Shown here piece after piece: positions 27,925 through 39,530 of a stretch of DNA of 64,000 bases. The notes below the pieces were generated by a model that saw nothing but the letters and a program-made list of their open reading frames with translations, made no database searches and was not told where the DNA came from. The position numbers and the translations under genes were made by a program. The DNA comes from a virus. Its lineage: Duplodnaviria > Caudoviricetes. Position 1 is the stretch's first letter; every line of letters starts with the position of its first letter. Where the stretch lies: positions 32,001 through 96,000 of the IMG/VR virus record IMGVR_UViG_3300029288_000092, one strand, 5' to 3'.

Positions 27925-30900
27925 TTAAATATCAAGTTCTTCCAACCCAACAATTCTCATGTAATCCTCTGTTAATTCTAATGCTGGATTTATTTTTCTT
28001 TGCTCTGGTAAATTAGCATGCCCACTTATTAATATATCGGACAACATTTTTCTTTTCAATGCCATATCATCACTTGCTGGACCAAACAGTTCTCTTATAA
28101 TTTTATTTGCACCATATGCAGATAATACCCAGCTGTCCAGTTCTCCAACAGTTTGACCTTTCTCTTTATTTGCAGCAGACGGTTGTTTTGTTTTCTGCGA
28201 ATATGAACCTATAGATCTGACTGTTAATTTTTTTTCTGCCATATGTTCCAGTTTATGAATAAACATATATCCAACCGGAACTTCTCCATTTGTTTTCATA
28301 TCATATTCTGGAAGGAACAATTTATATTTTGTTTTCAATCCAAGAATTTTCATTGCTTCCATTATATCTCTGACTTTTGGTGCATCAAATGGTGGAACTA
28401 TTATTGGAAAGAATCTTTCATTCCTCATTTCTTGAAATTCTATTTCTGACATGCCGATTAAAGATGCCATCATTTCTTTTCTTATTCTCTTGTCAGCAGT
28501 ATTATCAAGATGAGCCATGACTTTGAATAATAATTTTGTAAAAGCGGACTTGCTAAGATTCTTTGCTTCATCTGATAATTTTTTTGATATTAACCCACAA
28601 TAAACTTCAAAAACTTGTCCCATGTTAATACGACTATAAATACCAAATGGGTTTAGAATAATATCTATTTTCTCTCCCCATGGTGTTACTGGCATTTTAT
28701 CATCATCTTCCATAAGAGTAATAACACCTTTATTTCCATATCTATTTGAAAGTTTATCTCCGTCCTTAATATCTTTTTCTGTTTCCACATAAACTTTTAT
28801 AAGTGTTCCATCAATTTTCTCACCACGAATAGTATATTGTCCTACCCTTTTTGGATCACCAAATTTATCAACCAATTTTGTCATTGTCGGATTTATACTC
28901 TTGTGATTACAGTATAATTCAACAGAATAAATTATTCCCTTATTGGATTTCAATGTTATTGTTTTTTCAGTGGTGATATCTAAATCTCCAAAATCTTCCA
29001 TCTCACCAAGCAATGGAACTATATTTTCTGGAACAAATTCAACAAGCACATGTCTATCTTCTATGTGTTTATCAATATCAATATCAAAATTGACCAATTC
29101 ATCTTTCTGGGACAAAAATATTTCAAATACCATTGAGTGTCTACTTGTCAACGCTTTTTCACTATACAACCCTTTTCTTATAACAACTCCATCTTCAAAA
29201 TTAGAACCCTTCCATTGCATAAAAGCACATAACAAATTTCTTCCAAGTGCAAGCTGACCATTTTTAAATAAATGATTAGATACTATAACCTGCCCAGATT
29301 TAACCTTATCTCCAAGTGCAACATCAGATTTTAATTCACTAACGCTATGAAAACTTTGTCCACTTCTAAGAACAACTCTTCCTATTTCAATTTCTTCTGT
29401 TTCCCCATTCTTATATTGAACCTTTATACTATTCTCATTTATCTCCACTATCTTGCCATCATCTTGAGCAGTGACTATAAATTCACCAGAACTATAATTT
29501 GCTATTAAAGATTCATATCCAGTCTGGACTGCAGGAACTTCATTATTTATAATCGGAAGAGATTGTTTCATCTGATTGGAAGCCATAATACATCTTGTTG
29601 GCTCATTGTTTTCTATAAATGGAATAAGAGATGTCGTCGGACTTAACATTCCAGTTTTTAAATTATCATCTATTTTTTTTATTACTAAATGTCCATATTT
29701 TGTTCTATAGTTTGCAGAATTTGTCAGCTGTTGAACCATACCAATTGCATCTGACTGTGGAGTATCAATTGGATCTATATTCCCAAAATATGTGGGGTGA
29801 ACTCCTCTCATTTCAAGCAATTCAGCATTAGCATCTATTCCACCAACTCCTCTGTATGTTACGCGAGTTATTGATGAGATTTGCTCCAGGGGATTAACAT
29901 ATTCCGCAGTCTGTGTCAATGATGATGTTAAAATGTCAGTCATGATTTTATTCTGATCAATTTCAAGTTTAACCGATTTATTCCTTAATTTTGTTTCCCC
30001 ATTATATCTGGAATATGCCAAATCAAAAACATTCTTAATAGCCATTGGAATAATTTCAGTACTTCTAACACGCATTTTACTGATATCATTTCTTGCTTGG
30101 AAATATCCTTCAATTAATTTTGGGATAACATATTTATAAATATCAATAATATTTGTTGGTTCATTATTTGACAAAAGAATTTCCTTTGTTTGTTTATCAA
30201 TAATATTTGCATGGACGGTTTGAATATTATATTTTGCATTCTTATTTCCAGTCAAAGCGGAAATGACATTATTCCATAAATACTTTCCATCTGAGAATTT
30301 GGAAGTATAATCCTTTAAACGTTTGAAATCATTTTTTAATACTTCCCATTCTGGTTTATTAAATATGATATTAATCGTAGTATCTTTTGTTTTTAATTTA
30401 ACTAATGAATTCTCGACATTATCTCGCGTTATCTGAATCCCAAAAACTTTATATAATCCTTCTTCACCGAATGCAGCTAAAAACCCAAGGATAAATGGCA
30501 TTTTCATTCCAGAACAAAACATACTAAAATATGGCTCTTTAAATGTTTTAAATTCTATCCTTATAGGAGCATATATTGAATGAATATAAACTGTGTGCGG
30601 CTTTGGAAAATAAATTGGATTAGCAACCAATTGATTGATCAAAACCTTTTTCATTCCATTAACATATATATAATTATTTTCAATAATGGCCGGAACTTTA
30701 AATTTGACAATCTGCAACTGACCATTTGCCAATTTTAATTTTGCAGTATACTGGACAAAAACACTTTTAAAAACTTCAGTTGGCGCACTGGTAATAACCT
30801 CTTTCTTTATATCCATCAGTTTAACCGGGATATCATTATCCTTATATGAATTTAAAATTTCAGTTATATATTCATCCTGAAGTTGCGTCACTTCATTTAT

Positions 30901-32061
30901 TCTTTTAACCATCACGTTATTTAATAACTGATTATTGTGTATTTTTTTAATATCCATATTTTTGACAAGTGGATGCTTGGATCTATTTTTTATATCCATA
31001 GATGGCAATATAAATTCTTTTGTTTTTTCTATAACTTTCTTAGCTCCATGTTTAGAAATAGCTTTTTTATTTGTAGAATCATCAGTATTGAAAACATGCT
31101 TCAACACTTCAGCAGCTAATTCTTCATCAGTCTCAATATGTTTAAATTCTTCTTTTGTTTTACCACTTGTAATATTTGATCTGATAACTTCTTTTGCGGT
31201 GGAAATATCCAATTTATCATCTTTTCTAAAATTTTCATTACTCTTATTAACATTCCCATCTGTTTTTGATGTTTCTGCTTTAACTTCAATTTCACTTGTA
31301 GTTGGTGTCATTTCTGTTTCTTTCTGATCTGGCAACTCTTTGTTAACTTCCTCAGCTGGTTTTTCAGCAGCAATTTCTTCTTCAAATTTCATGTTTCTTA
31401 AATATGCCATTAATTTTCCAAGATTAAATCTTTTGTCACCTTTCCTATAAATCATTCTATATGTGACCGTATCATATTCTTCATTAAGCAAAAACATATC
31501 ATCAAAATAATTTGATCCCATTTGAATTTGTTTTAATAAAGGATATATTCTCCGTTTAAAAATATTTTTATCAAATGGCAATTTATTATTGAAATGATAA
31601 AAGATAGTAACTTTATATCCTTGATTTTTAAATTCTTTTGCAAAATCATTTAGAATATTGCTCAGCATCATAAATGGAACTTTCTGCCTCAGATCAGGAT
31701 ATTTATTTTGCAATATTTCCATCCATGGATTAAAATCGAAATAAAACGGTCTGTTCAATCCTAATATTTTTTCCTTTGTCATAAATGGAAATAATTTATA
31801 TGCTGCCCTAATATTTTGTAAATCACTGCCTTTTGGAAACATTCTTATAAATTTATATACAAATCTTGGTAATAATAAATTTCTTACGAACATTACCGGA
31901 ATATTTATTTTTGGAAATACATCCAAAAATGATTTGTTATTTTCAGATATATATATTATCGCAATCTTATCTCTTGGTGTGATATAAACCTTTTTATCTG
32001 TTGTAGAGAACAACATAAATTGATTTGGTTTTTTTGCTTCCAATAATAAATCATTTGACAT
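27925..32061 (-). CDS. rpoB: DNA-directed RNA polymerase beta-like subunit (unsplit) with N-terminal extension
   Basis: YIYVNGMKKVLINQL, RGVHPTYFGNIDPIDTP, MASNQMKQS, GSNFEDG, GDKLSNRYGNKGVI, DIILNPFGIYSRINMGQ, KLEHMAEKK, GQTVGELD. Confidence 0.95.
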   Translation of the reverse strand: MSNDLLLEAKKPNQFMLFSTTDKKVYITPRDKIAIIYISENNKSFLDVFPKINIPVMFVRNLLLPRFVYKFIRMFPKGSDLQNIRAAYKLFPFMTKEKILGLNRPFYFDFNPWMEILQNKYPDLRQKVPFMMLSNILNDFAKEFKNQGYKVTIFYHFNNKLPFDKNIFKRRIYPLLKQIQMGSNYFDDMFLLNEEYDTVTYRMIYRKGDKRFNLGKLMAYLRNMKFEEEIAAEKPAEEVNKELPDQKETEMTPTTSEIEVKAETSKTDGNVNKSNENFRKDDKLDISTAKEVIRSNITSGKTKEEFKHIETDEELAAEVLKHVFNTDDSTNKKAISKHGAKKVIEKTKEFILPSMDIKNRSKHPLVKNMDIKKIHNNQLLNNVMVKRINEVTQLQDEYITEILNSYKDNDIPVKLMDIKKEVITSAPTEVFKSVFVQYTAKLKLANGQLQIVKFKVPAIIENNYIYVNGMKKVLINQLVANPIYFPKPHTVYIHSIYAPIRIEFKTFKEPYFSMFCSGMKMPFILGFLAAFGEEGLYKVFGIQITRDNVENSLVKLKTKDTTINIIFNKPEWEVLKNDFKRLKDYTSKFSDGKYLWNNVISALTGNKNAKYNIQTVHANIIDKQTKEILLSNNEPTNIIDIYKYVIPKLIEGYFQARNDISKMRVRSTEIIPMAIKNVFDLAYSRYNGETKLRNKSVKLEIDQNKIMTDILTSSLTQTAEYVNPLEQISSITRVTYRGVGGIDANAELLEMRGVHPTYFGNIDPIDTPQSDAIGMVQQLTNSANYRTKYGHLVIKKIDDNLKTGMLSPTTSLIPFIENNEPTRCIMASNQMKQSLPIINNEVPAVQTGYESLIANYSSGEFIVTAQDDGKIVEINENSIKVQYKNGETEEIEIGRVVLRSGQSFHSVSELKSDVALGDKVKSGQVIVSNHLFKNGQLALGRNLLCAFMQWKGSNFEDGVVIRKGLYSEKALTSRHSMVFEIFLSQKDELVNFDIDIDKHIEDRHVLVEFVPENIVPLLGEMEDFGDLDITTEKTITLKSNKGIIYSVELYCNHKSINPTMTKLVDKFGDPKRVGQYTIRGEKIDGTLIKVYVETEKDIKDGDKLSNRYGNKGVITLMEDDDKMPVTPWGEKIDIILNPFGIYSRINMGQVFEVYCGLISKKLSDEAKNLSKSAFTKLLFKVMAHLDNTADKRIRKEMMASLIGMSEIEFQEMRNERFFPIIVPPFDAPKVRDIMEAMKILGLKTKYKLFLPEYDMKTNGEVPVGYMFIHKLEHMAEKKLTVRSIGSYSQKTKQPSAANKEKGQTVGELDSWVLSAYGANKIIRELFGPASDDMALKRKMLSDILISGHANLPEQRKINPALELTEDYMRIVGLEELDI

Positions 32062-32079
32062 TTTAAATCACCCCTATTT

Positions 32080-34149
32080 TCAGTATAGCATTTCAAGAAT
32101 AGAACTGCTCATTTGAGTTGTACCATCTATATCTTGATGATATGCTGTGATCAATCCTTGATGGAATGAATTCTGTATATCTTCAAACATCAATCCCAAT
32201 TTCCAATTATCCAAATATGGAATCGATTTTATTCCAACCTTATATGGATTCCATTTTTTAGTTAATCTTGCCAACAATCTATGATTATCAAAATCTCTCA
32301 AAATTTGAGACATCAATACTTCAATGTGAACTAAATCCATTGTCGTGATGTCATTATATTTATCCCATATTCTATTAAAGATTGTCAAAATATTCCTAAC
32401 ATTTTCACGCTTATCCAAATAAGAGACCAACTGATCTATAACCAGAGAAAAATTATCTTCTTGATCTGCTACAATAAAAAACTGTTCTCCTGCTTTCACA
32501 TCCAAAATAATTTTTTCTTTATCAATAAATACAATTTTATTTCTCAATATGGTTATACCCGTATCTGCTTCTAATAATACATTTCCTTTTGTTGGATGAT
32601 CTAATATCATGAATAAACTTGGGATAAGAATATTTCCTTCCTGTGTTTCTATTATTGAATTTTTTTGAATTGTTCCTAATAATATTTCCAGTTTGATGTT
32701 TTGCAATGCAATAAGATTTTGCCCATCCTGTTTGAATATTCCTTTCAATTCATTTTCATCTAATTGAGTTTGATTTTTTATAAATGCTTTCATAATATCA
32801 AAAATTTGAACAGAAACTATACCTCCGGTATGGAACGTTCTCATGACCAATTGTGTTCCACGCTCACCTATAGATTCCCCAGCAAGAACACCAATATTTT
32901 TAGTTTTGATGATTTCTCTTAATTTTCCATAACATGTGTGGCATATTTCTCTTGATTTGCAGAATACTGGAGATCTTAATTTTAAAACTTTAAATCTAGA
33001 AACATTATCTGGGGTCAATTCAATTAAATTCTCATTGTCATCCAAAACATATCTTCCATAAACCCTGCTGCTTATGTTGGGGCTATTGGCTATATCAAAT
33101 GTCCTGTTTGTCTTACAGTCGTGGACATCCTCGGATAATCTGCAACAACTCAACGCAAAAACTAATTTTCTAGTCAAGTATCCAGTGTCTGCAGTTTTTA
33201 GTGTTCTATCTGCCAATCCTTTTCTTGCACCACTACCAGATGCAAAATACTCCGATGGTTTTAACCCATCCACAAATGAAGAAGAAATTGATGTTGTCAG
33301 ATTATTACCAGCATCAGAAATTAATCCCTTCACTCCCAACATTTGTGTTATCTGAGACATCTTACCAGACGCTCCAGATATAATAGAATCATATATCGCA
33401 GATCCACTATTCTTTAATCTTTCAAGAATGACTTTTCCCATATCTTCTATTATTTTTGTTTTTTCCGATAAGTCATCTGTTTTCTTAAATAACTCTCTTA
33501 ATTTTATAATTTCTTTATCTTCGCTTATTAATAAATCATCCAATACAATACTTCTTGGATAAATTGTTATAACCTTATATGATAATTCTTGCAATTCCTG
33601 CACCACATTATTAAGCCTATCTTTATAAAACATTAATAATTTTTTGAACAGTGGTTGAAATTTCTTACTATTAATTGTTTCAAGAATATATCCATACTCT
33701 TCAGCATATTCTTTAAAGGAACTATTAAATAAATATTTTCCAACAGTTATTGTTTTACCTTTAATTTTTATTCCTTTTTCAATATTTTTAAGCATCTCAT
33801 TAATATCAATGACACTCCCAGTATACATTTCTTTAATCACATAATCTTTTGTCAATATATATATACCTTGAAAAATATCTTTTTTCAATTCCAAAGATGG
33901 TTGATACATTCCCTTATGAGAATTCATTGTCATTAATAGTTCTCTTGCTTCAGTGGTCGCTTCATCTGTTAGCAGGGCATAAACAGCCATAGTATCTTGA
34001 ACAAACACACCGTCGGCGGTAGAGAAGGTATACCAATCTTCAACTGTAAAATCATATCCAGTTGTTTTAGTTTCATCTCTAGTTATTTCTATTTCAGATA
34101 TAGGAATTAATTCAAGATTTTGTTTTTCAAGATTTTCTTTTATTGACAT
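32080..34149 (-). CDS. rpoC: Split-intein C-fragment (52 aa) fused to the RNAP beta' C-terminal half
   Basis: GYDFTVED...F..ADGVFVQD|TMAVY; bridge helix GARKGLADRTLKTADTGYLTRKLV; Zn site RSPVFC...IC..CYG; trigger loop SIGERGTQLVMRTFHTGG. Confidence 0.93.
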   Translation of the reverse strand: MSIKENLEKQNLELIPISEIEITRDETKTTGYDFTVEDWYTFSTADGVFVQDTMAVYALLTDEATTEARELLMTMNSHKGMYQPSLELKKDIFQGIYILTKDYVIKEMYTGSVIDINEMLKNIEKGIKIKGKTITVGKYLFNSSFKEYAEEYGYILETINSKKFQPLFKKLLMFYKDRLNNVVQELQELSYKVITIYPRSIVLDDLLISEDKEIIKLRELFKKTDDLSEKTKIIEDMGKVILERLKNSGSAIYDSIISGASGKMSQITQMLGVKGLISDAGNNLTTSISSSFVDGLKPSEYFASGSGARKGLADRTLKTADTGYLTRKLVFALSCCRLSEDVHDCKTNRTFDIANSPNISSRVYGRYVLDDNENLIELTPDNVSRFKVLKLRSPVFCKSREICHTCYGKLREIIKTKNIGVLAGESIGERGTQLVMRTFHTGGIVSVQIFDIMKAFIKNQTQLDENELKGIFKQDGQNLIALQNIKLEILLGTIQKNSIIETQEGNILIPSLFMILDHPTKGNVLLEADTGITILRNKIVFIDKEKIILDVKAGEQFFIVADQEDNFSLVIDQLVSYLDKRENVRNILTIFNRIWDKYNDITTMDLVHIEVLMSQILRDFDNHRLLARLTKKWNPYKVGIKSIPYLDNWKLGLMFEDIQNSFHQGLITAYHQDIDGTTQMSSSILEMLY
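33994..34149 (-). other. Split intein C-part (blocks F and G), ending Gln-Asp, +1 Thr
   Basis: Block F YDFTV..W.TF and block G DGVFVQD/T. Confidence 0.85.
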
Positions 34150-36083
34150 TTAATTTCCCCTAATTTTAATCTAAACTTTAAGTTTCCACAATCCCACAAC
34201 CTATATAACCCCTCTTGGGCTCTCAATATCCATTCTGGAATATCCAAAGGCTCATCTTTACGTTTTCTATATTTAAATCGATGATATCTATTCATATTTT
34301 TAACATACCAATAATTCAATCCTGTCCAACCAACATCCTCGAAACCAAGCGTTCTATATAAATCACCATTACTCCACCTCAAATCAGCATATGTAAAAAT
34401 TTCTTTTGGTTTATTTTCTTTTATAAAAAAAGAAAGAAATTTACTAGCCATTCCAGTAATGGTATAATCTATTTTAACAGCAAATCTTGACAATTCATAA
34501 ATATTATTATCTTTATTTTTGTTTCCTTTAGATATACTTGGTTTTGAAAATGTCATAACAGAAACCAATTCATTTTCATGGAAAGCACCATATCTCATTC
34601 CAGAGTTATCATTGCCTTGAATATGATTTTCATCTAAAAAACTTCTGCATATATCACTAGATATTTTAACGATTTTACATTTTCTAGCATATATTTTATT
34701 ATTATTTTTATGTAAGATGTTTCTTATTCTTGATTTTACAATTTCTTTTTTATTACACCATTCATCTTCAAATATTTGTATTAATTTAACATTCTTTTCT
34801 TCTGCCTTTTTATACTTTATATGGTGTCTTCCCATTTCCTCTTTTAATATATTTTTAATAAATTCTTTATTTTCTAAAATATTATCCTTATTATATTTTG
34901 TAATTTCCGGTCCTTCGGAATGCCACCATATTCCATTCATTTCTATACCGACATTATAATCCAGAAGATAAAAATCTATCTCCAATGGCGATATTATTTT
35001 CCTATCCAACGCAGTATATTTTACGTTCAATTCCATCAAAAAAGATTCCATCTCCAATTCCATATCTGTTCTATAGGATGGATAACAATCCATGCACCTA
35101 ACAGATGATTTATTAAATGTCAAGAAAGAAAATTTTTTTCCGCATTTATTGCAAATCGCAGTTCTTTTATCTGAATATACAAACATATCCTCTATTGAAT
35201 TCTCAAAAGTATAGTTAAGAATCAGATCATTATATATTAACTCCAATTTTTTCTTCCAGTTTTTATAAAAAGATTTTTTAACTTTAATTTTAGTTTCATC
35301 AGATTGACTAATGTTATCAACCCCGTATTTATTTTTAACTCCATCTTTTTGAAGTTTTTTACCTTCTTTACTCTGCCATGGATATTTTGTTCCCCAATTC
35401 TTCAAAGAAGTATTTATTTTTTTTGTTTTGAAATCTTCCGATTGGCTTATATTATCAACCCCATATTTTTCTAACATTGTCTGTTTCATTTTATCTTGAA
35501 CTTCTTTTGATTGTGCTGGATTATCAACTCCAAAATGTAATCTTGTAGTTTTTTTCTTTTTTTCTTTAATTAATTCTGATTGACTATTATGATCAACGCC
35601 ATATTTTTTTCTGGTGCTTTCTGTTGCTTTTTTTCTAACCTCTTCTGATTGTAATGACCAATCAACACCATATTTTTCTTGATTTATATTTTTTATTTTA
35701 TCAATTATTTTTTTGGATTTACTTGGGTTATCAACACCATAATTCTTTACCCATGTTTCTTTTTTCTTTTCGAGAATTCCGGGTATTTGACTCGCATTTG
35801 TAACTCCGTATTTTTTAATTAAAGTTTCTTTATTTTTATTAATAACATCCGGATCTGAATTTTTACATTTCGAGCAACAATATTTCCTATATCCGACATT
35901 TAAACCATCAAAAACTGTTTTATTCCCACATATTTTACATTTTCCTTCATTTTCATTTTCTTTGATATATTTATCATAGTAGTCATTGATGGATATATTA
36001 TGTTCCCATTTCATATGCCCAAATGATTTACAACCTAATTCTTTCCCGCATATTCTACAAATATGTTTTTCATTAACACTCAT
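34140..36083 (-). CDS. Free-standing homing endonuclease (Zn fingers, KYGVDN repeats, Vsr/PD-(D/E)XK-like nuclease, Hef-like C-terminal domain)
   Basis: CRICG...H...H, CKICG...YCC..C, about 8 (K/N)YGV.N.SQ repeats, EIDFYL...GIEMNG.WWH, IFEDEW, YARKC...NHIQG...YELSRF...TYADLRWS. Confidence 0.85.
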   Translation of the reverse strand: MSVNEKHICRICGKELGCKSFGHMKWEHNISINDYYDKYIKENENEGKCKICGNKTVFDGLNVGYRKYCCSKCKNSDPDVINKNKETLIKKYGVTNASQIPGILEKKKETWVKNYGVDNPSKSKKIIDKIKNINQEKYGVDWSLQSEEVRKKATESTRKKYGVDHNSQSELIKEKKKKTTRLHFGVDNPAQSKEVQDKMKQTMLEKYGVDNISQSEDFKTKKINTSLKNWGTKYPWQSKEGKKLQKDGVKNKYGVDNISQSDETKIKVKKSFYKNWKKKLELIYNDLILNYTFENSIEDMFVYSDKRTAICNKCGKKFSFLTFNKSSVRCMDCYPSYRTDMELEMESFLMELNVKYTALDRKIISPLEIDFYLLDYNVGIEMNGIWWHSEGPEITKYNKDNILENKEFIKNILKEEMGRHHIKYKKAEEKNVKLIQIFEDEWCNKKEIVKSRIRNILHKNNNKIYARKCKIVKISSDICRSFLDENHIQGNDNSGMRYGAFHENELVSVMTFSKPSISKGNKNKDNNIYELSRFAVKIDYTITGMASKFLSFFIKENKPKEIFTYADLRWSNGDLYRTLGFEDVGWTGLNYWYVKNMNRYHRFKYRKRKDEPLDIPEWILRAQEGLYRLWDCGNLKFRLKLGEIKCQ

Positions 36084-36097
36084 TTTTACAATCCTCT

Positions 36098-37630
36098 TTA
36101 TTTCTTTACCAAATATTTACCATCTGGTTCTAATAGCAAATCATTTGGTGTTATTTTTTTAAGGCAACCGTCCTTTTCGTCATACACAATTAAACTATGA
36201 TCCATAGATACCCAAAAATCCTCAAATCTATTTTTATCATCATGCAATTTGAACATTTCTAGATTTTCGTGTTTAGAATATTCTGTTATTTTTTTATTGT
36301 CAATATCGCCAGTGGAAAGATCTATGGCCTTAATCGATATATCTTTTATTGGTTTAAATTTAGTAACTATAATCCCAGAATCTTTTATCTTCGTTTTAAT
36401 TTTTTCCACCAAACCAGAATTTTCTATGTCACTAATATGTATTAATACTTCTTTCCCATCTACAAATAAAAGTATATTGCTTAAATTTGAATCACCGTCG
36501 AAGTCAGCGTTCAGTCCCTCGCATACGGCATTGTTTATTCTCAAAACACTTCCATCAACAATAACAGGTTCAAATGCCCTCCAACTATCTCTATGAAGAG
36601 CAGGATCTCTTTTTGCACAAATCATTCTATCTTTAGAAACTTGAATAACAATTTTCTTAATTTCGCCATATAAAGGAGAATCAGATTTGATCATGTTTTG
36701 ACTGATATCTTTCAAAACCTTTTTACATTTATCCAAATAATCTTCCTTTGGATACATTTGAGAAAGCATATCAAAATATATTTTTTCTTGCTGTAATAAT
36801 GAATGCAATATAAATGGTTCAAATATTCTTACAGCAATTCTCATTGTTATGCCCATCTTGTTTGGTGGCATTTCTGGGTCACCAACTATAACACCTCTAC
36901 CCGAATGATCTACCCTTTTTCCCAATAAATTAGATCTATAATATCCTGTTTTCTTTCCCAATTTAAGTTTAATAAATTCATATAAATTATTATATGCCAA
37001 TTGAATTTTAGAAACAAATGTTGAACGGGTCAATTCATCAAACCCATCCAGATTTGAAGGAATAGATCTACACACCTTAATAATTTTTATATAATATTCA
37101 TTAAGCTCATCAGGCATAAAATCACCAGTCTGTCTATTTGGGTATATAGGTCTTCTATCTGGAGGAATGATTGGTATTTTAGAAGTAAAAAGTTTTTTCT
37201 TATTATTTTTTAATATATTTGCAAATGCAGTTCTGTCAGGTGTATCCACCCTGAATTCAAGACTATTATACACCGTTATTAAACCAACAATACCATAATG
37301 CTCTGCATCTCTTTCGGCTAATTCTATGGCACCTTCTTTAGTTACATTAAATCCCAAATCTTGATTAACAATGTCTTTAATTTTTTGATCTAGTCTTATA
37401 AGTATTGAAAAAACAACGGGATTGAAAATCTTAACTCTTAAATCAATACAAGCATACGCTGAATGATATTTTTCACTTCCCTTAGAACCAAATATAATTG
37501 GGCTGAACAATCCAGTTTCAGAATATTGTTGTAATCTTTCATTTTTGAATATTTTTGAATCATTCACTATTGGCAAATGAGCGCAAAAACTTTCTAGATC
37601 TAATAAAGATAATTTGGTTTGCTCAGCCAT
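36098..37630 (-). CDS. rpoC: RNAP beta' N-terminal half (380 aa) fused to a split-intein N-fragment (130 aa)
   Basis: GLFSPIIFG, IPIIPPDRRP, NLLGKRVDHSGRGVIVGDP, KRDPALH, VCEGLNADFDGD|SNLS...; intein block B FWVSMDHSL. Confidence 0.93.
   Translation of the reverse strand: MAEQTKLSLLDLESFCAHLPIVNDSKIFKNERLQQYSETGLFSPIIFGSKGSEKYHSAYACIDLRVKIFNPVVFSILIRLDQKIKDIVNQDLGFNVTKEGAIELAERDAEHYGIVGLITVYNSLEFRVDTPDRTAFANILKNNKKKLFTSKIPIIPPDRRPIYPNRQTGDFMPDELNEYYIKIIKVCRSIPSNLDGFDELTRSTFVSKIQLAYNNLYEFIKLKLGKKTGYYRSNLLGKRVDHSGRGVIVGDPEMPPNKMGITMRIAVRIFEPFILHSLLQQEKIYFDMLSQMYPKEDYLDKCKKVLKDISQNMIKSDSPLYGEIKKIVIQVSKDRMICAKRDPALHRDSWRAFEPVIVDGSVLRINNAVCEGLNADFDGDSNLSNILLFVDGKEVLIHISDIENSGLVEKIKTKIKDSGIIVTKFKPIKDISIKAIDLSTGDIDNKKITEYSKHENLEMFKLHDDKNRFEDFWVSMDHSLIVYDEKDGCLKKITPNDLLLEPDGKYLVKK
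36101..36490 (-). other. Split intein N-part (Ser1, block B SxDH)
   Basis: Begins immediately after NADFDGD (36491-36511) and ends DGKYLVKK-stop. Confidence 0.85.
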
Positions 37631-37657
37631 TTATACACTCCTTGTATTTCAAAGTTA

Positions 37658-37670
37658 TTTATTTTTGTTC
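37658..37670 (-). promoter_or_regulatory. Putative phage promoter motif GAACAAAAATAAA
   Basis: Recurrent motif ~30 nt upstream of the beta'-N start; overlaps the upstream stop codon. Confidence 0.45.
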
Positions 37671-37988
37671 ACTAGTTTCCTTATTTGCTAAAGAATTTTT
37701 TAATTTTATTGTATCCATTATTTTTTTTCTCCTACTTTCGGATTTATCGTATATATCATCGTCGATTGTAAATACAATTGAAGGATTAATATCACTTCCT
37801 AATATATCTTCAGGAAATAATAATTTTGGCGGGGATAATACATTTTTCATTTTCTCATCGTCGTTAATATAATTTACCAAATACTCTTTTAGTGATATGC
37901 TTTCTTCATAATTATTAATAGAAACTATACCAGGAATATAAAACAAATTTTTAAATTTGTCAATCCATTCAGGAGTTAAATTCATCAT
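37659..37988 (-). CDS. Hypothetical protein in the RNAP locus
   Basis: ORF with a GGGGG RBS. Confidence 0.6.
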   Translation of the reverse strand: MMNLTPEWIDKFKNLFYIPGIVSINNYEESISLKEYLVNYINDDEKMKNVLSPPKLLFPEDILGSDINPSIVFTIDDDIYDKSESRRKKIMDTIKLKNSLANKETSEQK

Positions 37989-37998
37989 ACTTCCCCCC

Positions 37999-39414
37999 TT
38001 ACTCCATATTTCTTTCCATTGTCACCATGGTTAAGAAAAATTTTCTAATTTTCTCAAATTCTTCATTCTTATCATCAAATAATTTAATCATCGTATCAAT
38101 TATAATTTCAACCCAGTCATCTGTTATTGTAACGACATTTCCTTTGACGATATCATACACATAAGGCATTCTCAAATCTTCAATAATATAATTTAATAAA
38201 TTGATAACTATGCTTTTATCCTTTATACCATAGAAATTGACATCCTTTTCCATAATAGCAGTGTAGTATTTTTTTATTGTTTTCTTTCTAATATTCTTAC
38301 TGACAGAATTTTTTCTTGTTTTCACTACTCTCAATAACAATGATAATTTTTGAAAGAATGGATCTTCAGGATATAATTTTGAAATAAGTTGTGAAATAAA
38401 TAAATTATTCAATACGATATAATGTGTTTTTCTTTCATTTAAAAAGCTAGTAGAAATTCCAGTTATTTTTGATGTTATTAAATTTCCAATGGTATACATG
38501 ATTGGGGATACTGTTACATCTGCAGATCGCTGTATTAAATTATCAACACTTTCTTTATCAAATAAATATTTCAATCCAAATAAAATATGATTATTGAACA
38601 TAGATTCATTCATAATTAATTTATCGACATCAAGTGCCATCAAATATTGCTCAAAGTAATTTTCATTGTTATCGCTAATAATAGTAGAATTTATATTAGT
38701 TCTAATAAGCCATGTGAACTTTTCGTTAATAACTGAAACAATAAATGTCATTGGATTCTTTTTAACTCCAAAATCATATGTAACTAAAAACTGATGCATG
38801 AAAGAATTAAACATCATCAGAGAGTATCCTATGTTTTGGTATCCATATTTAATAGATACTAAATTCCATAACATTTTATCAGATAAAGAAAATTTAAAAG
38901 ATAATTGCCTAATCAGTCTATAAAGAATATCAACAAATCCAGCATTATATAATTCACCTGTTACCACAAACATAAATTTTTTATAGAGATATTCTGTAAA
39001 ATTATTTTTATCAAATATAAAAGGAGAAATCAATTTTAATGAAATTATTGTTTCCAATAACATTTTCATCATTTTTTCATCTATATAAAGAGATTTGCCT
39101 GTTTTCTTGGTTGGATTACAATAATTGGAAACATCAATGTCCATCATCTCAAATCTTTTCTTTGAAATAAAAGAAACATCTTTTAATTTCTCAAAGAAAT
39201 TATCCCAATCTTCTGCAACATAATATTCGATTAATGATCTGATGAATGGTTCATATTCTGAAACTAATAATGTTGATCCTTTGATAAAATCAATTATTTC
39301 GTCGCAAGAATTTCTCATTGTCAAATTCTTTATAGCAAACTTCCACTTATATCCATCGCTGAATATAAATTCTCCAAATTTATTACTTTTTTCCTGAGAT
39401 TGAATAAGTTTCAT
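37999..39414 (-). CDS. Hypothetical helical protein, candidate RNAP specificity (sigma-like) subunit
   Basis: First gene of the RNAP cluster, 471 aa; function inferred from position and size only. Confidence 0.35.
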   Translation of the reverse strand: MKLIQSQEKSNKFGEFIFSDGYKWKFAIKNLTMRNSCDEIIDFIKGSTLLVSEYEPFIRSLIEYYVAEDWDNFFEKLKDVSFISKKRFEMMDIDVSNYCNPTKKTGKSLYIDEKMMKMLLETIISLKLISPFIFDKNNFTEYLYKKFMFVVTGELYNAGFVDILYRLIRQLSFKFSLSDKMLWNLVSIKYGYQNIGYSLMMFNSFMHQFLVTYDFGVKKNPMTFIVSVINEKFTWLIRTNINSTIISDNNENYFEQYLMALDVDKLIMNESMFNNHILFGLKYLFDKESVDNLIQRSADVTVSPIMYTIGNLITSKITGISTSFLNERKTHYIVLNNLFISQLISKLYPEDPFFQKLSLLLRVVKTRKNSVSKNIRKKTIKKYYTAIMEKDVNFYGIKDKSIVINLLNYIIEDLRMPYVYDIVKGNVVTITDDWVEIIIDTMIKLFDDKNEEFEKIRKFFLTMVTMERNME

Positions 39415-39493: not shown

Positions 39494-39530
39494 AAAAAAA
39501 TGGGCACTCTGAGAAAACCCAGAGTGCCCA
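39494..39530 (-). terminator. Intrinsic terminator after the major capsid gene
   Basis: TGGGCACTCTG/CAGAGTGCCCA stem followed by a T tract on the minus strand. Confidence 0.85.

Follow-up and report, generated by a model that had tools for sequence, protein, structure and literature searches.

A predicted cysteine-independent split intein inside the catalytic loop of a phage RNA polymerase beta' gene

The catalytic beta' subunit of a multisubunit RNA polymerase is encoded in two separate open reading frames (ORFs) in a stretch of 64,000 nucleotides (nt) of DNA from an uncultured large phage, positions 32,001 to 96,000 of the IMG/VR virus record IMGVR_UViG_3300029288_000092. This whole stretch is referred to below as the window, and positions are counted from its first letter. 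The first ORF ends, and the second begins, with sequence resembling one half of an intein, and the gene of a homing endonuclease lies between them. We conclude, with a probability of roughly 0.85, that the two halves form a split intein that is functional and cysteine-independent, and that the interrupted beta' gene is a fractured gene as described by Dassa et al. in 2009. The polymerase most likely must be joined after translation to be active. A previous description made from the letters alone, termed here the sequence-only reading, had given beta' in two ORFs, intein halves of 130 and 52 amino acids (aa), an endonuclease of 647 aa and a joined product of 380 + 637 = 1017 aa; all of these numbers are correct. 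The features of the interrupted gene are as follows, in the order in which they are encoded.

36098-37630, minus strand: beta' N part, 510 aa, from the ORF list.
36491..37630, minus strand: beta' N-extein, 380 aa, ending in NADFDGD (Pfam RNA_pol_Rpb1_2, E 5e-24; TIGR02386 positions 313-447).
36098..36490, minus strand: N-terminal intein half (IntN), 130 aa plus a TAA stop (Ser1 codon 36488-36490; coding 36101-36490; stop 36098-36100).
36084..36097, minus strand: 14-nt spacer AGAGGATTGTAAAA, with a Shine-Dalgarno-like AGAGGA ahead of the endonuclease ATG.
34140..36083, minus strand: free-standing homing endonuclease, 647 aa (PHROG 3339 'homing endonuclease', E 5e-117; DUF7487, E 1e-54).
32080-34149, minus strand: beta' C part, 689 aa, from the ORF list.
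33994..34149, minus strand: C-terminal intein half (IntC), 52 aa, ending in GVFVQD (block F GYDFTVED; block G GVFVQD; Asp52 codon 33994-33996).
32080..33993, minus strand: beta' C-extein, 637 aa plus a stop, starting with TMAVY (Pfam Rpb1_4 and Rpb1_5; TIGR02386 positions 443-911).

The interruption lies within the Mg-binding loop of the active site. The three catalytic aspartates of this loop are those of NADFDGD, and the N-extein, whose end reads ...CEGLNADFDGD, stops at the third of them (D380, last base 36491); the Pfam RNA_pol_Rpb1_2 match in the 510-aa product runs up to residue 381. The C-extein begins with Thr53 of the C-fragment (codon 33991-33993), which is the +1 residue. On the NCBIfam rpoC model TIGR02386, both ORFs together cover profile positions 313-911, with the N part stopping at position 447 and the C part beginning at 443. 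This indicates that the exteins abut, with no gap in beta'. In a collection of 5.8 billion proteins, the two closest homologues are P0004 (1016 aa, ADFDGD-TMAIY) and P0005 (1017 aa, ADFDGD-AMAIY), both of them uninterrupted single ORFs that are 74-79% identical to the beta' of the window: the N-extein is 79% identical to residues 1-380 of the intein-free P0004 and the C-extein 74% identical to its residues 381-1016. The contig of one of these two homologues (L002) shows the same gene order as the window, namely capsid, 472 aa, 92 aa, beta' and beta. Since the closest relatives possess one uninterrupted beta' gene, the insertion in the window is exact: 2497 nt (33994-36490; 393 + 14 + 1944 - 10 + 156) separate the codon of the third catalytic aspartate from the next. 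This insertion point corresponds to what we take to be the junction of D464 and Q465 in E. coli beta' numbering. The beta' catalytic domain is present in one copy within the 119-kb contig. The 90-nt extein flanks of the insert (36491-36580 and 33904-33993) present a G+C content of 44% and 39% against a background of ~30%, which we considered as a footprint of co-conversion and rejected, because an intein-free relative shows a partial bump in the same flanks (40% and 34% against 33%) and the signal mostly reflects the amino-acid composition of the motif.

The sequence-only reading had described the residues on either side of the endonuclease as Hint-type fragments, and this is borne out by comparisons of sequence and of predicted structure. 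In IntN, block B is Ser-Met-Asp-His (residues 475-478; His478 codon 36197-36199), and the closest sequence match in the PDB is the Pab PolII intein (listed as polC; E 0.06), with SMDHSLIVY aligned to TVDHPVLVY at block B. An exhaustive HMMER search with the N-fragment yielded many N-fragments of 480-540 aa that matched it over its full length, and the search with the C-fragment yielded many C-fragments sharing a leader of ~52 aa. Block-B His478 and His454 are invariant among 20 aligned N-fragments, with the block-B Ser and Asp nearly so, and Y32, D33, T35, E37, T41, F42, D46, G47, F49, Q51 and D52 are invariant among 14 aligned C-fragments. One relative, P0085, has a precomputed PF14890 match. 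Another (L008; protein P0132) carries a contiguous mini-intein of 175 aa at the same beta' site (L008:1803-2327), which is 38% and 56% identical to IntN and IntC of the window in pairwise comparisons and 36% and 45% identical in the multiple alignment. This mini-intein was modelled with a mean confidence (pLDDT) of 93.7 from a 14-row alignment that included the halves of the window. All of the matches listed in a Foldseek search of this model against the PDB (about 45, down to rank 50) were inteins or Hint-type domains. The best was 7oec (template modelling (TM) score 0.78-0.80), followed by the cysteine-less Aes123 PolB1 split intein 9hth (TM 0.72-0.74), and further matches comprised RadA, TFIIB, PolII, DnaE and DnaB inteins. 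A Hint fold is thereby predicted for the beta' site, as modelled on the contiguous intein of this relative.

The two halves of the window were also predicted to dock onto each other when co-folded, an experiment that the earlier description had proposed. IntN (residues 376-510) and IntC (residues 1-60) reached an interface score (ipSAE) of 0.83, compared to 0.00 for the best of three controls. The runs share at least 84% of their contacts, the pLDDT of the partner is at least 79, and the tightest predicted contacts join the last strand of IntN (505-508) to IntC residues 14-17. Of 80 solved complexes, 58 attained the mark used for docking, as did 2 of 110 mismatched pairs. Because solved structures include many split inteins, this predicted pass denotes likeness to split inteins and falls short of proof of binding. 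A simple pairing of the halves by electrostatic attraction was rejected: the net charge is -8 for IntC and -3 for IntN, without charge complementarity. A profile search of the PDB with the intein alignment returned beta' chains only, as the DFDGD extein columns dominated the profile.

The residues expected for splicing are all found in the window: Ser1 (Ser381), the Ser-x-x-His of block B, the Asp of block F, the terminal Gln-Asp and a Thr at position +1. Across intein-bearing sequences, residue 1 is Ser in 29 cases, Thr in seven, Ala in two and Cys in one, so that a nucleophile is found in 37 of 39. The terminus is Gln-Asp in 21 out of 21 family members examined, followed by Thr in 18 and by Ser in three. 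The +1 position is Thr or Ser in all 21 intein-bearing alleles but only in 35 of 154 uninterrupted ones, in which Gln dominates (Fisher p 2e-12, a test that ignores relatedness). In distant phages, the exteins are 30-37% identical, whereas IntC is 46-71% and IntN 38-50% identical; the intein is better conserved than the exteins. The fixed Gln-Asp end, the restriction of the +1 residue and the conservation of the intein beyond that of its host protein argue that the splicing chemistry is under selection and not decayed, and it is from this conservation that we infer trans-splicing of the beta' subunit in the window. Inteins with a terminal Asp or Gln are documented to splice through cyclisation of this residue, in some cases slowly (PMC4031507). 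Since such termini are documented working variants, the Gln-Asp end does not disqualify the present sequences from membership among inteins.

The endonuclease gene is arranged as expected for a fractured gene. Each of the 510-, 647- and 689-aa ORFs occupies a different reading frame and has a stop or start of its own. The ATG of the endonuclease ORF and that of the C-part ORF are each preceded by a Shine-Dalgarno-like purine run; the ATG of IntC (34147-34149) follows AGGGGA and is contained in the final 10 nt of the endonuclease ORF. The endonuclease itself presents Cys clusters at its N terminus, eight modules of a DNA-binding type with an exact spacing of 23 aa at residues ~82-275 (Pfam DUF7487, E 1e-54) and a Vsr-like nuclease core with D370, E381 and W386-W387-H388. 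The spacing of these core residues (18 and 7 residues) equals that of D51, F62 and F67-W68-H69 in E. coli Vsr as quoted in PMC2677866, and E381 stands at the position of Vsr Phe62, where a Glu is specific to the Vsr-like homing endonucleases of Dassa et al. (PMC2677866). With this active-site spacing, the comparison with fractured phage genes made in the earlier description is apt. The Pfam Vsr model scored below its threshold (E 0.017, and 0.003 on the sub-sequence; 15-18 against 27 bits), no NCBIfam model matched the endonuclease, and a single-sequence AlphaFold model reached a pLDDT of 34 only. Homologues of the endonuclease were found in 428 phage records, often in multiple copies; it is single-copy in this contig. 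The C-terminal 187 aa (window 34143-34703, minus strand) are weakly Mom-like (PF25680, E 2.5e-5, 24.5 against 27.1 bits).

These features can be arranged into the following scenario. An intein would have invaded the beta' gene at the precise point where the last catalytic Asp of NADFDGD meets the residue that follows, and it would later have been broken, at the point where endonucleases are usually inserted, by the gene of a free-standing Vsr-like/Hef-like homing endonuclease. By sequence, the operon now gives three proteins, namely the 647-aa endonuclease and two fusions, N-extein-IntN of 510 aa and IntC-C-extein of 689 aa. IntN and IntC would associate into one Hint domain, in which Ser381 would perform the N-O acyl shift and the resulting ester would then be attacked by Thr53 of the C-fragment. 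Asp52 would cyclise at the terminus in place of the usual Asn, and an O-N shift would release a native beta' subunit of 1017 aa with the junction NADFDGD-TMAVY (junction peptide ...NADFDGDTMAVY...). The Mg-binding loop and the double-psi barrel would form only after ligation, and the polymerase would therefore need protein trans-splicing for its activity. The endonuclease would act as the selfish driver of the system, presumably cutting intein-free beta' genes in co-infecting relatives, such that the insert would spread by homing.

Two further claims of the sequence-only reading did not fare as well. We found no support for the proposal that the split acts as a post-translational switch. The dependence of phage transcription on splicing is likewise unsupported, since the contig represents only ~38% of the genome and a second polymerase is possible. 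A more ambitious version of the scenario would hold that a single intein lineage was broken in two independent events, once at the canonical endonuclease site and once ~30 aa from the N-terminus, that it remains split where the endonuclease has been lost, that whole clades of large phages are obligatorily dependent on trans-splicing and that slow Asp-cyclisation serves as a post-translational timer of phage transcription. We regard this version as unlikely. If the timer were real, phage-driven transcription would start only after a delay imposed by Asp-cyclisation or under conditions (pH, Mg, temperature) that it sets, and the intein would not be a neutral parasite.

Several observations weigh against a functional split intein. 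A PDB sequence search with IntC alone gave no match. The N-fragment of the window scored far below the cut-off of the Pfam Intein_splicing model (E 0.026, 14.8 against 35.8 bits), and no match to this model above the cut-off was found anywhere in the contig. The Hint fold was modelled on a relative, the window's own halves having been modelled only as a complex, and the conservation statistics are not phylogenetically independent. The consensus of block G is also not matched: the penultimate His and the terminal Asn are absent, with Gln-Asp instead. An Asp at position -1 favours side reactions in some studied inteins. Given the atypical block G and this Asp, the efficiency of splicing could be low.

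The main alternative is that the intein halves are splicing-dead relics and that the pieces of beta' are held together non-covalently by the Hint domain acting as a zipper, which would yield a permanently split enzyme. We consider this improbable. The replacement of His-Asn by Gln-Asp in block G and the sub-threshold Pfam match would fit such relics, and natural splits are tolerated elsewhere in multisubunit polymerases (cyanobacterial gamma/beta', phiKZ/AR9-type phages); NCBIfam gamma-subunit matches and split phage homologues were seen here as well. However, the class-1 splicing residues are all present and are either invariant or limited to nucleophiles across alleles whose exteins are 30-37% identical, it is in intein-bearing alleles alone that the +1 residue is confined to Thr or Ser, and the terminal Asp is a variant documented to work. 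Moreover, judging from RNA polymerase structure, a folded domain of 182 aa that separates the third catalytic Asp from the residue after it would be hard to reconcile with catalysis. There is, in addition, a very slim chance that the fractured beta' is decaying and dispensable, with transcription ensured by the host polymerase or by a further one whose genes lie outside the sequenced part of the genome. With the contig estimated to cover 38% of the genome, and with two polymerase sets known from some jumbo phages, there is room for a second enzyme. Yet both exteins are full-length, without internal stops and 74-79% identical to those of intact relatives, and the beta gene and the two syntenic ORFs upstream of beta' are intact. 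Just one beta' catalytic domain is found in 119 kb, and the split layout has been kept in many lineages.

Slimmer still is the chance that the insert is removed at the RNA level, as a group I or group II intron carrying an endonuclease ORF, or that the layout is an assembly or frameshift artefact of a contiguous intein gene. In phages, group I introns that carry endonucleases often interrupt polymerase genes, as seen in the literature on AR9-like and Jug phages, and Vsr-like endonucleases are found in introns too. A search of Rfam over 31500-38500 (E <= 1) returned no intron family and one chance-level match only, so that no group I or group II intron is detectable, in line with the exclusion of RNA splicing that the earlier description had sought. 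Nor would an intron leave 130 + 52 in-frame residues that jointly form a Hint domain. The three ORFs in three frames, with ribosome-binding sites before the starts of the endonuclease and of the C-fragment, speak against an intron and an artefact alike, and the same layouts turn up in samples independent of each other (L004, L005 and L006; L009, L013 and L012, with gaps of 11-95 nt). A split intein that joins beta' after translation remains our preferred explanation.

The earlier description had also called for unsplit, intein-free alleles and contiguous-intein alleles in relatives; both were found, at the same site. All of the computational checks put forward in that description thus turned out favourably. 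Together with the window, the relatives constitute the following series of alleles.

Empty site: L002 and most relatives.
Contiguous mini-intein: L008.
Contiguous intein that carries a LAGLIDADG domain at the break point of the window: P0028.
Canonical split with a DUF7487/Vsr-like endonuclease: the window.
Canonical split without endonuclease: L009 (L009:4457-7989), with a 95-nt gap, and L013 (L013:3533-6448), with a 12-nt gap.
Atypical split with a DUF7487 endonuclease, IntN of ~30 aa and IntC of ~150 aa: L004 (L004:3291-8346), L005 and L006.
Apparent atypical split without endonuclease: L012:1947-3754, with an IntC leader of 150 aa, 11 nt after a 435-aa ORF.

L004, L005 and L006 are three independent assemblies, and the endonuclease between the halves of L004 is 471 aa long. 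In P0028 (1170 aa, truncated by the end of its contig), a LAGLIDADG_3 domain is inserted where the intein of the window breaks; by comparison with the window, two unrelated types of endonuclease appear to have used the same point of the beta' intein. For L012, we did not find DFDGD in the upstream 435-aa ORF, which is a putative N-fragment only. Among the proteins retrieved, 17 IntN tails are canonical, ~10 are short and 10 are longer (contiguous or truncated), and the IntC leaders comprise 13 short and eight long ones. The split alleles without endonuclease of L013 and L012 came from a degenerate DNA pattern for the junction of block G and the extein, which was over-strict and matched two viral and two genome contigs. 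These two contigs were binned with cellular genomes, L012 (QMSR01000115.1) in a metagenome-assembled genome (MAG) of Thermoplasmata and L013 (JAIPGF010000024.1) in a Candidatus Izimaplasma MAG; both are probably phage contigs. A search with the C-fragment for related loci in viral contigs confirmed no relative. Because the split state persists without the endonuclease in L009 and L013, which suggests that it can outlive it, the split halves may well still function.

The beta' intein is, as judged from these sequences, patchy and mobile. On a FastTree phylogeny of 138 N-exteins, the presence of the intein needs 18 changes, at least 16 of which are forced by well-supported branches; the mean of shuffled data is 23.2, and one of 500 shuffles was as low. 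The window belongs to a well-supported clade of eight N-exteins, the other seven of which are intein-free. For this lineage, the pattern would be explained most simply by a gain of the intein, on an unrooted tree that does not distinguish gain from loss. Many relatives present a second beta' split, located ~407 aa into the C-extein (L013:5063-7449, 461 + 331 aa; P0056-P0078, forms of ~784 aa).

The layout closely resembles that of the fractured genes gp41-1, NrdJ-1 and IMPDH-1 (Dassa 2009, PMC2677866), which are known mainly from phage and metagenome DNA. Both show two adjacent co-oriented ORFs, with IntN ending the first and IntC starting the second, and an endonuclease gene of the Vsr-like class between them in overlapping or abutting frames. 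In contrast to those systems, the host here is a transcription enzyme, the site lies inside its Mg-binding catalytic loop, the chemistry is of the Ser1/Gln-Asp/Thr+1 kind and IntN is long (130 aa). Contiguous inteins are known from RNA polymerases, namely Mja rPol A', Mja and Nph rPol A'' and the eukaryotic and viral RPA2, RPB2 and RPC2 (Goodwin et al. 2006, PMC1635734), and archaeal COG0086 inteins have also been listed (PMC4760082). The RNA polymerase inteins of PMC1635734 likewise occupy conserved regions near the active centre of a multisubunit polymerase, but they are cis-splicing inteins of archaeal or eukaryotic origin, for the most part Cys-based and equipped with LAGLIDADG domains, and none is described as split.

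Other split inteins share single properties with the present one. The Aes123 PolB1 intein (9hth) likewise has a Ser1-based, cysteine-independent splicing domain. Natural atypical split inteins are described as rare and include AceL-TerL (IntN of 25 aa) and GOS-TerL (IntN of 37 aa) (PMC11766414); like AceL-TerL, the relatives L004 and L012 are split ~30 aa from the N-terminus. Aes123 PolB1, AceL-TerL and GOS-TerL differ in their host, which is a DNA polymerase or a terminase, in their low identity (16-18%) and in their Asn terminus, as opposed to Gln-Asp here. A non-Asn end is shared with the Asp/Gln-terminal inteins (Amitai, Dassa and Pietrokovski 2004, cited in PMC4031507), for which cyclisation of Asp or Gln is thought to occur. 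The inteins of this kind covered by that citation are contiguous and reside in other proteins; Gln-Asp is here fixed (21/21), split members included. For the endonuclease, relatives of the Hef-type/Vsr-like kind in the Campylobacter phages CP220 and vB_CcoM-IBB_35 (annotated as Hef or homing endonuclease) align with it over more than 90% of the length at ~30% identity; they have the restriction-endonuclease-like core in common, and none is linked to a beta' target.

Catalytic subunits of RNA polymerase are likewise encoded in pieces in the cyanobacterial gamma/beta' and in phiKZ- and AR9-type polymerases. Those splits lie between domains, and the pieces remain separate. In contrast to such intein-free splits, the break is here inside the catalytic loop and flanked by intein halves. 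A full-text literature search with incomplete coverage brought up neither an account of an intein at NADFDGD nor one of a split intein in a phage RNA polymerase; reviews of jumbo phages touch on inteins only briefly. The fractured-gene layout is known from DNA-replication genes, and beta' would be a new host protein and a new site, the contiguous Mja rPol A' having been compared by description only.

If our interpretation is correct, natural protein trans-splicing reaches core transcription, beyond the enzymes of replication and repair. The junction lies within a universally conserved metal-binding loop, and the active site would be absent until two proteins are ligated. The series of alleles (empty, mini, LAGLIDADG and both splits with or without endonuclease) offers a system for the study of gene breakage and of the origin of split inteins. 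Finally, this cysteine-free split-intein family, with its Gln-Asp terminus, its native Asp(-1)/Thr(+1) junction and its versions with long and short IntN, constitutes a source of candidate orthogonal ligation tools.

The window is included in a 119-kb IMG/VR virus record that is estimated to be 38% complete, with ~30% G+C. This phage contig carries genes for tail proteins, a T4-type capsid, a DNA polymerase and a DnaB helicase. When the DNA of the region was compared to 50,697 phage records with megablast, no match was obtained; the relatives are distant and recognised at the protein level only. The frequency of promoter-like sites in the region was not above that in shuffled sequences. The scan for terminators gave four matches in all, against 2.0 in shuffles, and none was convincing beyond a terminator-like hairpin at 39501-39530, behind the capsid gene and upstream of the operon; two of the matches are minimal hairpins of five pairs inside the C-fragment ORF (34008-34021 and 33254-33270). 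Neither the promoter scan nor the terminator scan suggests that the insert arrived with control elements of its own. The operon itself is a closely packed run of minus-strand ORFs of 471, 109, 510, 647, 689 and 1378 aa, in which beta' is flanked by the following genes.

27925-32061, minus strand: RNA polymerase beta subunit, 1378 aa (Pfam Rpb2_6, Rpb2_3 and Rpb2_7), directly downstream in the same operon.
37659..39414, minus strand: two ORFs of 471 aa and 109 aa that share the transcription unit of beta' and lie directly upstream of it, syntenic with the 472-aa and 92-aa ORFs of L002.

In the beta subunit, Rpb2 domains are recognisable only from ~residue 717 with Pfam or from ~520 with PHROG, and the long N-terminal stretch before them is unmatched. 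The comparison of gene orders showed that beta also follows beta' in the intein-free relative L002. The 471-aa and 109-aa ORFs matched no family in Pfam or PHROG, and their products are candidates for accessory subunits of the polymerase.

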